DNA of 20,000 bases from an uncultured virus (IMG/VR IMGVR_UViG_3300007171_000042) (Duplodnaviria; Heunggongvirae; Uroviricota; Caudoviricetes). This document shows, piece after piece, positions 12,939 to 20,000 of the stretch. The DNA is taken from the IMG/VR virus record IMGVR_UViG_3300007171_000042, positions 52,384-72,383 of that record. The stretch is one strand, 5' to 3'. The position numbers and the translations under genes were made by a program. Below the pieces are notes generated by a model. The model was not told the origin of the DNA. It did no database searches and saw only the letters and a program-made list of their open reading frames with translations. How positions within the stretch are numbered: the stretch's first letter is position 1; the number at the start of each line of letters is the position of its first letter.

Positions 12939-13619
12939 ATGATACAGGTTATCTTTGATCATATAACAGGCTTTGGCAAGATTACAGAGCAAGACTTTAT
13001 CTACTCAGACCCTAAGGGAATAGCCTTAGGAACAGACTATAATAATTATCTAAATGAAGGCTGGGTAGAATGGCAAGGATACTGGTATAATTTAAGATCA
13101 ACTAGAATTAAAATAAGTGACTATAAACCCACCAAGACTGTAAAACGCTTAGCCAATAAAGTCCAAATATCTAAAGTAATCCTAACTCAAGAAGAAGTAG
13201 ATAGACTTCAACCTGTCTACGAAAAATACATAACCACTAAAGGATACAAAAGGGATATAAAACTAGAAGACTTCCTAGATTACTTTGCGATTCTCTACTG
13301 GCACAATGAAAAGCTTATTGGAGCATCTATCTTCAAAGAGTATAAAACAGACCAAAAAGACATAGTTGACTATCAGTTTCTGTGGGACTATGAAGACCCT
13401 AAACTATCTTTGGGAAGCGTATCCCTATACTACGAGATAGAATTAACTAAAAACTCTGCCACCTACGTATACTTAATGGGAGGCTATGAAGAAGCCTGTA
13501 TTTATAAATCTAACTTTAAAGGGTTTGAATGGTGGACAGGAACGGAGTGGTCTTCCGACTTAGACCTTTACACACAACTTTGTAAAAGAGACAACAATGT
13601 ACATATACGAACCTCATAA
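12939..13619 (+). CDS. ATE1/Bpt-like aminoacyl-tRNA-protein transferase (GNAT fold)
   Basis: Ordered family-like motifs YLNEGW, RIKISDYKPTKTVKR, VYEKY, EKLIG, WDYEDPKLSLGSVSLYYEI, YVYLMG and CIYKSNF-x2-FE. Confidence 0.75.
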   Translation: MIQVIFDHITGFGKITEQDFIYSDPKGIALGTDYNNYLNEGWVEWQGYWYNLRSTRIKISDYKPTKTVKRLANKVQISKVILTQEEVDRLQPVYEKYITTKGYKRDIKLEDFLDYFAILYWHNEKLIGASIFKEYKTDQKDIVDYQFLWDYEDPKLSLGSVSLYYEIELTKNSATYVYLMGGYEEACIYKSNFKGFEWWTGTEWSSDLDLYTQLCKRDNNVHIRTS

Positions 13620-14717: not shown

Positions 14718-14781
14718 TGGTCGACTATGAGACTATAAATAGCCTTTAGGCATAGTGCGTTACTCTTATGAGTAGGTATGG
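14718..14781 (+). ncRNA. Pistol-class self-cleaving ribozyme candidate
   Basis: P1 TGGTC/GACTA, loop ACTATG pairs with CATAGT, TAAATAG junction, GCG, P3 TTACTC/GAGTAG, GT cleavage dinucleotide, P2 CCTT/ATGG. Confidence 0.75.
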
Positions 14782-14795
14782 AAACAATAACAGAT

Positions 14796-15113
14796 ATGGA
14801 AAAGAAAATTGCTTATTTAATGAAAAGCTATGAATTTGATTCAACAGCTTGTCACGGTGAAGGTGCAGAAGTACAATGCTTTACTTTGGTATATTCAGAT
14901 AACTCTAAACTTAAGGTTAGTGATTATTTGGCTATCCCATTAATGAAGTTTGGTAATGTGCCTGTTAGATATTCAAACTATCATTGGAATTTTATTAATG
15001 AAGGTATTGTTCTAACTAAAGAACAAAGAGCATTAATAGATGATTATAGAAGTAACTATTCTAGTAGAAAAGTTCTTCCTACCCATGATTGTGTAAAATA
15101 TCTTTGGAATTAA
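14796..15113 (+). CDS. Hypothetical protein (start probably ATG 14796 rather than 14778)
   Basis: ATG 14796 lies in the AACAGATATG leader. ATG 14778 lies inside the ribozyme P2 strand. Confidence 0.7.
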   Translation: MEKKIAYLMKSYEFDSTACHGEGAEVQCFTLVYSDNSKLKVSDYLAIPLMKFGNVPVRYSNYHWNFINEGIVLTKEQRALIDDYRSNYSSRKVLPTHDCVKYLWN

Positions 15114-18278: not shown

Positions 18279-18366
18279 GTCGAAATGGTGGAATAGGTAG
18301 ACACGCAGCACTTAAAATGCTGTAATCTGAAAGATTGTGCGAGTTCGACTCTCGCTTTCGGCACCA
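18279..18366 (+). tRNA. tRNA-Leu(UAA) with encoded CCA
   Basis: Acceptor GTCGAAA/TTTCGGC, anticodon arm CAGCA-CTTAAAA-TGCTG (TAA at 18313-18315), long variable arm AATCT-GAA-AGATT, T arm GCGAG-TTCGACT-CTCGC, discriminator A then CCA. Confidence 0.95.
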
Positions 18367-18385: not shown

Positions 18386-18652
18386 ATGGATAACGTACAA
18401 GATGTGCCAATGACACCAGCACTAGAACCAACAATGGAAAAAGTAGCTGAACTAAAAGAATGGAGACCTTCAAACAATGAAGCTCTTCGTGAGTTTGAAA
18501 TCAACATTAGATTTTTAAGCAGAGGATGTGTTGTAAGAGTGGGATGCAAAGAGATTGCATTTGAAGATCACACTAATGCAATGGCTGCTATTAACAATTA
18601 CGTTGCTAATCCTTGGGATGAACAACAAAAATGGCGTAAAATTTTAGACTAA
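18386..18652 (+). CDS. Hypothetical protein
   Basis: 88 aa, A-rich leader, TAATG-coupled to the RyR-domain gene. Confidence 0.75.
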   Translation: MDNVQDVPMTPALEPTMEKVAELKEWRPSNNEALREFEINIRFLSRGCVVRVGCKEIAFEDHTNAMAAINNYVANPWDEQQKWRKILD

Positions 18653-19050
18653 TGAGTGGAACAGTAGAATTTCAAGGCACTCAAGAGGAATGGGAAGCTT
18701 TAAAAAAAGAAAACAGGATTAAATGGATTGCTTGTGTTTGTCATCAAGCTAACAAAGCATGGTGTGAATCTGAGGGAGATGATTCTCAAAAAGATTGGGC
18801 ATTTGCAGAAGACTGGCAACGTGATTCAGCAATTAAAGGAGTTAAGTTCCGCTTAGAAAATCCTGATGCAGGACCAGATGCACAACACAATGCTTGGAGT
18901 GCAGATAAAATTGCTGATGGATGGGTCTATGGAGAAGTTAAAGACGCTGAGAAGAAGACTCACCCTTGCTTAGTTCCCTTTGATCAGTTACCTTTGTTTC
19001 AGCAAAAGAAAGACAAACTATTTAGTGCTATTGTAGATGCACTAAAGTAA
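18652..19050 (+). CDS. RyR-domain protein
   Basis: HNAW...K...GWVYG...KD...KTHPCLVPFDQL...KD is the RyR repeat (Pfam RyR) signature. Confidence 0.85.
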   Translation: MSGTVEFQGTQEEWEALKKENRIKWIACVCHQANKAWCESEGDDSQKDWAFAEDWQRDSAIKGVKFRLENPDAGPDAQHNAWSADKIADGWVYGEVKDAEKKTHPCLVPFDQLPLFQQKKDKLFSAIVDALK

Positions 19051-19058
19051 AGATCAAC

Positions 19059-19207
19059 CCTGTGGATAGAATCTGCAGGCCATGTACCATTAAGCATACC
19101 GTAAGATCTGCTAGAGATGGTCTTCGAGTTACTAGGAAAGCCTTAGGGTATAACTAGTAACAACCCCCAGTAAGCCTGCTTGATCAACAGAAACTGCTGG
19201 GGTTTTT
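19059..19207 (+). ncRNA. Four-element hairpin cluster ending in a terminator-like stem
   Basis: CCTGTGGAT/ATCTGCAGG, GGCCAT/ATGGTC, GTTACTAG/CTAGTAAC, CCCCAG/CTGGGG followed by TTTTT. Confidence 0.45.
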
Positions 19208-19209
19208 AT

Positions 19210-19368
19210 AGTCAGGTGGTGTAATGTTTATATATTGGTCAATCATAAGAACCCACTATATAACTTGGGCACACAATGTGATGCTGCTATCCGTAAGCAA
19301 AAACGGGGAAAGACCTTAGCAAGGTATGCTATAAACACATAGATACAGGTTTGAATCCTGTCCGACTA
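19210..19368 (+). ncRNA. tRNA-like RNA with expanded D and anticodon loops
   Basis: All four tRNA stems with canonical linker spacing: AGTCAGG, TG, GTGT/ACAC, A, ATGTG/CACAT, AGAT, ACAGG-TTTGAAT-CCTGT, CCGACT-A. Confidence 0.7.
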
Positions 19369-19369
19369 G

Positions 19370-19415
19370 AACAAGTAAATGGGGTAGTAGAAATATTACC
19401 CCAGTACTTGTTTTT
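19370..19415 (+). terminator. Long hairpin with T tract
   Basis: AACAAGTA..TGGGGTAGTA-GAAA-TATTACCCCA..TACTTGTT then TTT. Confidence 0.65.
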
Positions 19416-19437
19416 AAATTAAAAGTTCGTATATTTG
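19408..19437 (+). promoter_or_regulatory. Bacteroidota-type promoter for the HNH gene
   Basis: TTG-N19-TATATTTG, 7 nt before ATG 19445. Confidence 0.75.
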
Positions 19438-19444
19438 TGACTAC

Positions 19445-19861
19445 ATGGAAAGGTTCTTTAATAAAATAGAAAAAACAGATTCTTGCTGGATATGGAAAGC
19501 GGGGTTACGTGGTAAAACAGGATATGGTGTTTTTAAACTTAATGGAAAGACTATAGATGCACATAGACTATCCTATCAACTGCACAAAGGAGAAATACCT
19601 GAAAAAATGTATGTTTGTCATACTTGTGATAATCGAAAATGTGTTAATCCAGAACATTTATTCTTAGGTACTCCTAAAGACAATTGGCAAGACGGATTTG
19701 ATAAAAATAGAATAAAGTTATTAGGAGGAATAGATACTGAAAAATTAAAAAAACATCCAAGCATAAGTGCTTATAATAAAGGATGTAGATGTAGAGATTG
19801 TAAAGACTTAAAATTTGCAGCTCAAAGAAATTGGAGGGAGAAACAAAAACTCCTGTCCTGA
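19445..19861 (+). CDS. HNH homing endonuclease
   Basis: CWIW...GYG...AHRLSY...[20 protein letters not shown] motif plus C-terminal H-x4-Y-x2-GCRC-x2-C zinc-finger-like motif. Confidence 0.92.
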
Positions 19862-19867
19862 CTACAA

Positions 19868-20000
19868 TGAGTAAGAGATACTCAGAGTCTTTGACCTAAG
19901 ACTCATTTAAAAATAGGTTGGCAGAAAGTCTACGGCCAGAGTGGGACTTCGTGGGATAAAGGAGAGTGACACATCTCCTCCCAGTAGTGTTGACTGTTTT
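19868..20000 (+). ncRNA. Structured RNA candidate, possibly continuing past the window
   Basis: Two hairpins then a three-way junction (see findings). Confidence 0.45.

Follow-up and report, generated by a model that had tools for sequence, protein, structure and literature searches.

A tRNA-like element with two inserts in an uncultured phage and its family of constant ends and variable cargo

What kind of gene begins and ends like a tRNA and yet has no anticodon? The question is raised by positions 19210-19368 of a 20,000-nucleotide stretch of DNA, hereafter the window, which forms the last 20 kb of a 72-kb uncultured virus record in IMG/VR (IMGVR_UViG_3300007171_000042; estimated completeness of the record, 61%). 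An initial annotation, made from the letters of the window, had read this element as a non-decoding tRNA mimic whose D and anticodon loops are replaced by large structured inserts. Our comparisons indicate that the element is a member of a large and apparently undescribed family of RNAs in uncultured phages, in which a tRNA chassis carries a variable cargo. Our best guess at the role of this non-decoding, tRNA-shaped RNA gene, held with somewhat less than even confidence, is that its product serves as a scaffold for cargo RNA. The initial annotation was right that there is neither an anticodon nor an encoded CCA; it overlooked the family, the imperfect 3' acceptor strand, and an HNH homing-endonuclease cassette.

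A tRNA chassis and its relatives in uncultured phages

All features described here lie on the + strand. The 5' acceptor strand AGTCAGG (19210-19216), which is identical across the family and is preceded by a T at position -1 (T19209), leads into TG (19217-19218), the equivalents of U8 and G9 by sequence reading. In the D arm (19219-19274) a GTGT/ACAC stem (19219-22/19271-74) surrounds 48 nucleotides (nt) that are made up of AATG ... CTTGGGC and an inserted hairpin of about 38 nt (19227-19264), whose inner stem can be read as TTATATA/TATATAA (19228-34/19257-63). The helix equivalent to the anticodon stem (19276-19340), ATGTG/CACAT (19276-80/19336-40), was present in the minimum free energy (MFE) structure and closes a 55-nt loop, the cargo (19281-19335); no 7-nt anticodon loop is present. 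Two pairs of hairpin words can be read within the cargo, CCGT/ACGG (19291-94/19303-06) and ACCTT/AAGGT (19313-17/19321-25). A 4-nt variable loop, AGAT (19341-19344), is followed by the T arm ACAGG-TTTGAAT-CCTGT (19345-19361), which is fully paired but has U at position 56. The element closes with the 3' acceptor strand (19362-19367) and the discriminator A (19368), after which comes GAA in place of an encoded CCA.

Each stretch named in the initial annotation was present at its coordinates except the 3' acceptor strand. This strand is not CCTGACT but the 6-nt CCGACT, borne by the cassette described below. Because it is one T short of the full complement, A19214 has no partner, and the acceptor stem reads as 4 bp, a bulged A, and 2 bp (6 bp in all). 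A complete acceptor complement, CCTGACTA, is found 490 nt further downstream (19857-64). Nor has the D loop been replaced, as had been thought: the hairpin is inserted after AATG, and a GG (19267-68) is retained that, to judge by its context, could act as G18G19.

Standard searches pass over the element. ARAGORN was silent on 19210-19368, as the initial annotation had expected, and made its only call in the window at 18279-18366, a tRNA-Leu(taa). Rfam found the same tRNA and a Pistol ribozyme in the window, with no match to the element at the gathering threshold (29 bits for the tRNA family, RF00005) or at E values up to 10. Folding statistics, which here and below are z-scores against dinucleotide shuffles, were equally silent, with an MFE of -33.7 kcal/mol for the whole element, a shuffle mean of -33.45 kcal/mol (z -0.07), and 91 of 200 shuffles that folded equally well. 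On thermodynamics alone the element could be a chance arrangement; it is homology that settles that the element is real.

Words from the constant ends retrieved that homology. A 19-nt word from the T arm and acceptor, matched exactly, occurred in 15 viral loci, 11 of them with AGTCAGG, two with a variant acceptor, and two in ordinary tRNAs. The 17-nt 5' word AGTCAGGTGGTGTAATG had 37 exact viral loci and the 16-nt 5' word AGTCAGGTGGYGGAAT at least 126, with an estimate of about 1800 stretches for the whole IMG/VR collection. The initial annotation had pointed to AGTCAGG as a handle on other phages, and it does lead to a large family with hypervariable inserts. A set of 153 unique elements (68-247 nt), each closed by a T arm and an acceptor stem, was extracted under a filter of at least four of five T pairs and at least six of seven acceptor pairs; pairing rates in the family are biased upward because this filter required pairing.

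The ends of the family are highly regular. The 5' end reads AGTCAGG-TG-G(C/T)G(G/T)AA and the 3' end is a T arm (ACAGGTTYGAATCCTGT) with the acceptor strand and A, and the window copy matches both. A covariance model built from 40 short members likewise places the window copy in the family, with 36.6 bits (E 6e-8) over exactly 19210-19368. D arms come in two types, a leucine type, GCGG-AAT(T)GGTAG-ACGC (GCGGAATTGGTAGACGC in most members), and GTGT-AATGGTA-ACAC, to which the window copy belongs. Among the 153 elements, the T stem is ACAGG/CCTGT in 109, the T loop is TTCGAAT in 84 and TTTGAAT in 10, and the 3' acceptor strand is CCTGACT in 123; the trailer begins with C in most. A T at position -1 (130 of 153), an A discriminator (128 of 153), and the rarity of an encoded CCA (3 of 153) make maturation by RNase P and RNase Z plausible. 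Where the stems vary, both strands tend to vary together, in the T stem (e.g., GCAGG/CCTGC, ACAAG/CTTGT, GCCCG/CGGGT) as in the acceptor stem (AGTTAGG/CCTAACT in locus L180, AGCAAGG/CCTTGCT, AGTCATG/CATGACT), and we read these compensatory changes as selection on the tRNA shape. The place of the anticodon loop and variable arm is taken by 17-110 nt between the D and T arms, closed by a helix from position 26 onward and with no likeness between subfamilies. Each record held one to seven copies, always co-oriented, and copies were seen in 46 of the 48 records searched.

The tRNA finder gave no coherent decoding assignment to this family. With default settings ARAGORN called 41 of the 153 elements under 27 scattered "anticodon" labels, 12 with anticodons of two or four bases. 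Only four members, each of 71 nt, look like ordinary tRNAs in these default calls (Gln ttg three times and Glu ttc once), which indicates that the chassis can hold either a normal anticodon arm or a cargo. With introns allowed, 120 of 153 were "called" with every kind of anticodon and with introns at odd places, and our reading of these calls is that they are noise. The shortest member (L115, 70 nt) has a hairpin of 5 bp and a 4-nt loop where the anticodon arm would be. The missing 7-nt loop of the window copy, the scattered labels, and this hairpin all bear out the non-decoding tRNA mimic of the initial annotation.

An RNA that does not decode may nevertheless be charged. LeuRS or another synthetase could aminoacylate the chassis for a reaction off the ribosome, for example by an ATE/Bpt-like transferase, and the window does encode an ATE_C protein of 226 aa (12939-13619; 26.9 bits against a cut-off of 25; arginine/leucine-tRNA-protein transferase fold), for which there was no PHROG match. 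LeuRS does not read the anticodon, and the E. coli enzyme charges a minimal tRNA-Leu without anticodon and variable arms. The leucine-type D arm and A73 are conserved in most members, and the covariance model of the family scores the window's genuine tRNA-Leu (42.1 bits) about as well as members; since the tRNA-Leu scores so well, the model is a gauge of tRNA-Leu-likeness and not of family specificity. The window copy, however, has a GTGT/ACAC D stem with a 38-nt insert just before G18G19, the spacing of which matters for LeuRS, and its acceptor stem is bulged. The Gln and Glu anticodon arms on four members further argue that the chassis is not tied to leucine. The transferase domain, PF04377, was found in one of 48 chassis-bearing records, the window's own, and in none of 11 that were at least 90% complete, which speaks against the idea in the initial annotation of a donor for the phage transferase as a general explanation. 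We regard a charged carrier as very unlikely. For a phage to encode a transferase that depends on aminoacyl-tRNA is in any case unusual.

Two other classes of tRNA-like RNA were considered and rejected. For tmRNA, there was no ARAGORN tmRNA call and no RF00023 match, and position 3-70 of the element is U-A; for YrlA or Y RNA-like RNAs, there was no RF02553 match to the window, and the ends of the element form a tRNA acceptor stem. The same tool detected a real phage tmRNA in locus L177, at 1548-1915 (Rfam, 94.2 bits), immediately after two chassis genes of a 118-kb phage contig.

The inserts, their exchange, and what the cargo may do

The window copy stands out within the family for its two inserts and a 3' end rebuilt by the cassette. 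The D-loop insertion site, on comparison with other members, is a recurrent one. Inserts at this site were found in seven other members of the 153 (L005, L008, L051, L116, L118, L155, L162), with 28-85 nt between the D-stem strands versus the usual 8-13 nt, and each is flanked by AA(T/G) on one side and, on the other, by the GG expected to pair with the T loop. In short relatives the D arm GTGT AATGGTA ACAC is uninterrupted, and the window copy is broken after AATG. We take this site to be the variable pocket at positions 16/17, so that an elbow may still form despite the insert. A hairpin resembling a second T arm (stem, TTCGANT loop, stem) was seen within the D-loop inserts of L005 and L118 and within the cargos of L003, L051, L137, and L142. 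In L005 and L118 it amounts to a look-alike of a whole tRNA 3' half nested in the D loop, which hints at RNAs with two elbows.

Contigs from RNA libraries contain the element with both of its inserts in place. Two come from one study, X15 (matching 19208-19349, word depth 18) and X16 (19208-19340, depth 47), and a contig of a second study, X17, covers 19228-19317. No joint across the inserts was reported in these contigs; the form they carry is unspliced. Their upstream flank is that of L180, the closest relative of the window copy. The RNA runs consist of contigs, which give no starts, ends, strand, level, or CCA and in which rare forms could hide; parts of the window left uncovered in them carry no meaning.

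These contigs bear on whether the element might be a true tRNA interrupted by introns, with both inserts spliced out to give a decoding molecule. The sequence lends itself to this in one respect, as the word ATGCT occurs at both ends of the 55-nt loop and the removal of 48 nt (19286-19333 or 19287-19334) leaves AUGCUAA or AUGCUGA, with U33 and the anticodon GCU. Yet the variable loop has only 4 nt, and a bacterial Ser(GCU) tRNA needs a long variable arm. Rfam matched no intron family in the window, and a group I or group II intron needs about 200 nt or more, far beyond the 38 and at most 55 nt of the inserts. The D-loop insert would demand a second splicing event, forced intron models give every kind of anticodon across the family, and the RNA-library contigs retain both inserts with no joint reported. 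In our view an intron-bearing tRNA is extremely unlikely.

The same RNA with both inserts was found in one other contig only (L180/L116/L181). L180 and the window agree at all 70 nt between A19275 and the end of the variable loop and differ by two substitutions in the 48-nt D region, one of which turns a predicted inner-stem C-G into U-G. The acceptor of L180, AGTTAGG/CCTAACT, carries a compensated change and an intact 7-nt 3' strand. A 25-nt cargo word likewise led to one contig only among viral contigs, and a gapped D-insert pattern matched eight loci, of which one was genuine (the same contig) and seven were unrelated coding DNA. Two metagenome scans for the window cargo gave no matches, and no family member among the 153 other than L180 shares it.

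Cargos elsewhere in the family are better populated. In a subfamily of nine members, changes on both sides were found in 6 of 28 predicted pairs; pair 28/64 of the closing helix is GC in six, AU in two, and UA in one, and pair 37/57 of the inner hairpin is UA in six and AU in three. In a subfamily of six members, 7 of 30 predicted pairs changed on both sides, three of them in the 8-bp closing helix. Judged by this covariation, the cargos of these two other subfamilies appear to be under selection.

Comparison of three loci shows how cargos and flanks are combined. Upstream of the element, a hairpin with CCCCAG...CTGGGG and a run of five T (19165-19207) ends 2 nt before the 5' acceptor strand, and we infer that it is a terminator. 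It also precedes a member with a different cargo in L008, L011, and L013, where the stem is the compensated CCCTAG/CTAGGG; the window and L008 share it at 88% identity over 43 nt, the compensatory change included. A stretch of 106 nt that begins in the T arm and runs on into the downstream flank is common to L008 and L180 (98% identical). The window copy has its cargo in common with L180, and L008 lacks it. These mosaics indicate that cargos are exchanged between phages, with breakpoints in the constant ends.

We thus return to the scaffold as our best guess, because the parts read by tRNA-processing enzymes are kept in this family and the decoding parts are swapped for a partly structured, evolving cargo. 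The chassis would fold into the L shape of a tRNA, and host enzymes would excise and stabilise the RNA, RNase P acting on its 5' end and trimming and CCA addition on its 3' end. The cargo would then be the working part, binding a partner, and the constant ends may double as DNA-level handles for the exchange of cargos between phages.

Several observations weigh against this proposal. The inserts of the window copy had been called structured, and they show no folding signal beyond dinucleotide shuffles (z -0.11 for the D region and -0.81 for the middle with its closing stem); across 104 cargos of at least 35 nt the mean z was -0.58, with 34% below -1 and 28% above 0. The cargo stems of the window copy lie beyond a covariation test because L180, the sole relative, is identical there. 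A search of the element against the phage's own 72 kb found no antisense target (best complementarity 13 nt, E 0.13). The RNA-library contigs, which include 40-55 nt of upstream leader, could be contaminating DNA. The bulged acceptor stem might impair recognition by RNase P and the CCA enzyme, possibly leaving this allele crippled. Lastly, a pure scaffold leaves the constancy of the acceptor sequence, and not just of its pairing, unexplained.

That constancy is one reason to weigh a decoy or sponge, in which the chassis passes for a class II tRNA body and so binds a host tRNA-binding factor, for example a tRNA-cleaving defence nuclease, an acceptor-end toxin, or an enzyme of tRNA modification or processing. 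Its changed anticodon and variable region would make it uncleavable or a trap, and the variety of cargos would reflect an arms race. A near-invariant acceptor sequence would fit sequence-specific recognition; replacement is confined to the anticodon loop and variable arm, and the acceptor, the elbow, and a helix at the site of the anticodon stem remain; genomes carry several different paralogues; and phage tRNA genes are known as counter-measures to tRNA-cleaving defences. Set against this, no defence system or target was identified in this analysis, the D-loop inserts are odd for a faithful mimic, and the compensatory cargo changes suggest that the fold matters, which mere uncleavable filler would not need. 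A decoy is the main rival to the scaffold, though rather unlikely.

A bolder reading, which we consider similarly doubtful, is a natural modular system of RNA display. It would have two ports (the anticodon arm and D-loop positions 16/17), hypervariable cargos swapped by recombination in the constant ends, spread aided by a dedicated HNH enzyme with the 3' end of the chassis as its recognition site, and aptamer or decoy cargos that neutralise host factors such as tRNA-targeting defence nucleases. If true, this would be a large unrecognised class of RNA-based anti-host tools.

The endonuclease cassette and the surrounding sequence

The odd 3' end of the window copy is explained by what follows it. 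A hairpin, AACAAGTA..TGGGGTA-GTAGAAATAT-TACCCCA..TACTTGTT with a T run (19370-19415), forms a terminator-like site; a promoter-like box, GTTCGTATATTTGTGACTACA (19424-19444), stands just before a start codon; and the gene itself (19445-19861) encodes a homing endonuclease of 138 aa, with matches to Pfam HNH_3 (E 3e-12) and zf-His_Me_endon (E 1.8e-4) and to PHROG endonuclease families down to E 1.7e-31. Overlapping its stop codon is a remnant of the original 3' end of the RNA, TCCTGTCCTGACTA (19851-19864), the single match to that end in the window.

This arrangement recurs. Viral contigs contain 27 HNH loci homologous to this one. A chassis 5' end lies no more than 400 nt upstream in 21 of them and a TTYGTAYAT box upstream in 22; a hairpin with a TAGAAAT loop occupies the corresponding place in 14; and in 18, judged by a strict pattern, the 3' remnant comes directly after the HNH stop codon. 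In run X3, a 13-kb DNA contig agrees with the window over 19346-19865 and nowhere else, and its sequence to either side of this match is different. In each of five pairs of alleles one has the HNH gene and the other lacks it, although the two carry the same cargo and are 80-97% identical up to and including the T stem, which shows presence/absence polymorphism at one target site. The 3' acceptor strands of the five HNH-bearing alleles are all altered (CCGACT twice, CCTTGACT, CCTCGACT, and CCTGACG). Other altered strands in HNH-bearing copies include CCTCGGCT, and L121 has CCGACT like the window; endonuclease-free relatives have CCTGACT or CCTAACT, and their chassis ends in …CCTGTCCTGACTA….

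We propose that the cassette inserts in the T arm/acceptor region and brings with it a diverged copy of the last 12-14 nt (here CCTGT CCGACT A). As the altered strands of the HNH-bearing alleles suggest, the new end would presumably be uncuttable, and the old end would be left as a fossil at 19851-64. The bulged acceptor stem of the window copy follows from this replacement of its 3' end: the T arm of the initial annotation stands, its acceptor strand does not, and the HNH cassette explains the mismatch.

The endonuclease also lends some colour to decay, in which a phage tRNA wrecked by insertions is kept as a landing pad by the homing endonuclease and recombination while its RNA has no function. 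The chassis is the target of a mobile endonuclease; in four loci (L199, L200, L207, L211) the cassette has replaced cargo and T arm outright, with the 3' remnant following the HNH stop; the acceptor stem of the window copy is damaged; and its inserts are thermodynamically unremarkable. Against decay stand the thousands of intact copies with conserved -1 and discriminator bases, most of them without an adjoining endonuclease, and the compensatory changes in T, acceptor, and cargo stems across the family. The window and L180, moreover, are 97% identical from the 5' end through the T stem, with immediate upstream flanks that have no detectable match and an acceptor change that is compensated. We consider decay improbable. 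In the same four loci, the leftover 5' acceptor and the start of the D arm pair as a hairpin, GGAATGGTA...TACCATTCC.

Past the remnant, the window continues with what follows or separates tRNA-like genes in endonuclease-free phages. The contig end truncates this original downstream flank (19865-20000), in which a conserved non-coding spacer begins. In L147 and L164 the spacer stands between a tRNA and a chassis gene, and over 140 nt the window sequence has 86% identity to it; L039, L098, and L143 also match, and there was no Rfam match in those loci. The whole spacer is about 215 nt long, starts with CAATGAGTAAGAGATACTCA, and in L147 ends with ...CTCAGGTGGGGAAACAT. A short hairpin with a GGAAAGAC-type loop (e.g., GACAGCTTGGAAAGACAAGCAA) was seen 4-7 nt before many chassis genes (L156, L159, L169, L172, L151, L194-196, L208, L211, and others), and similar GGAAAG loops occur in the window at 19131-19147. 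Clustering of 892 open reading frames (ORFs) from flanks of 300-1500 nt gave no recurrent real protein family beside chassis genes.

The hosts can be hinted at. The box TTCGTATATTTG at 19430-19437, found also in 22 of the 27 HNH loci and before the chassis genes in L163, L152, and L171, contains TAnnTTTG, which we take to be the Bacteroidota -7 promoter motif. In bacterial genomes (39 of 64 parts covered) the 16-mer had at least 123 matches, nine of them family members and the rest chance. The nine lie mostly on small contigs of metagenome-assembled genomes, three Bacteroidota and the others in bins of unrelated phyla, and no host-chromosome tRNA with the chassis was among the matches listed. 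The promoter-like box and the three Bacteroidota contigs together hint at Bacteroidota hosts.

Two further features of the window were observed in passing. The Pistol self-cleaving ribozyme (RF02679; 14719-14781) scored 46.1 bits, above its gathering score of 34.5, and its last nucleotides overlap the start of an ORF at 14778-15113. A gene for a RyR-domain protein lies at 18652-19050 (Pfam E 1.4e-12), and part of its DNA is 80-82% identical to "ryanodine receptor" genes of Vibrio phages and to genes of Arthrobacter phages annotated as hypothetical proteins, an unusually wide conservation at the DNA level.

Comparison with known systems

Searches of the literature with chassis words and keyword combinations gave no description of the family. 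Among cultured (GenBank) phages there was no match at E 0.01, and at E 10 there were 675 records with partial matches of the T-arm type only, none covering 80% of the query. One report mentions five "tRNA or tRNA-like" candidate RNAs in IMG/VR (PMC10690425), in passages that give no description of the chassis.

If made and processed as we propose, these RNAs would be among the largest uncharacterised families of phage non-coding RNA (about 1800 stretches, one to seven copies per record). tRNA finders miss chassis genes or assign them meaningless anticodons, which distorts counts of phage tRNAs. A constant frame with a variable cargo also raises a testable question, namely what the cargo binds, for which counter-defence is an obvious candidate.

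The nearest natural counterpart is the class II tRNA-Leu of bacteria and phages (RF00005), with which the family shares the acceptor stem, U8, G9, a leucine-type D arm in most members, the TTCGAAT T loop, A73, and the lack of an encoded CCA. The family also lies in phage tRNA clusters, and its shorter members pass the threshold of the Rfam tRNA model, with 37-45 bits. It differs in having 17-110 nt of unrelated sequence instead of a 7-nt anticodon loop and a consistent anticodon, and the window copy differs further in its GTGT-type D stem with an insert and in going undetected by Rfam and ARAGORN. The "species 1" and "species 2" RNAs of phage T4 (rnaC, rnaD) and a tRNA-like RNA of T5 are small stable RNAs in a tRNA cluster whose tRNA-like ends are co-processed with tRNAs. 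The likeness to them is one of description and not of sequence, the full chassis being absent from cultured phage records, and to our knowledge they are not known to form a group of thousands of phage RNAs in which a constant chassis bears a hypervariable cargo. YrlA (RF02553) and tmRNA (RF00023) resemble the family as non-decoding RNAs with a tRNA-like domain. YrlA, which occurs in some phages, has its tRNA-like part in the interior and a Ro-binding stem at the ends; tmRNA has no D stem and depends on G3-U70 and a tag reading frame.

For the cassette, the closest parallel is SegB of T4 and T6, a free-standing homing endonuclease in a phage tRNA cluster (PMC2330249; PMC13096335). Both are selfish genes beside tRNA genes, with presence/absence polymorphism and co-inheritance of flanking sequence. 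The window enzyme differs in being HNH and not GIY-YIG and in targeting one RNA-gene family across many phages. Unlike SegB as described there, its cassette comes with the last 12-14 nt of the gene in altered form, and the former end stays behind as a remnant in direct repeat. It looks like a clear instance of a homing endonuclease that supplies a new end to the RNA gene that it presumably cuts.

The architecture as a whole has its closest likeness in a man-made system. In the engineered tRNA scaffold of Ponchon and Dardel, the anticodon arm of a tRNA receives a foreign RNA, which the cell then folds, processes, and protects (PMC3753655). The element has the same architecture, but it is natural, multi-copy, and diversified, and its D loop, unlike that of the engineered scaffold, offers a second place for an insert. 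The tRNA scaffold trick appears to have arisen in nature too, together with a second site at which insertion is tolerated.

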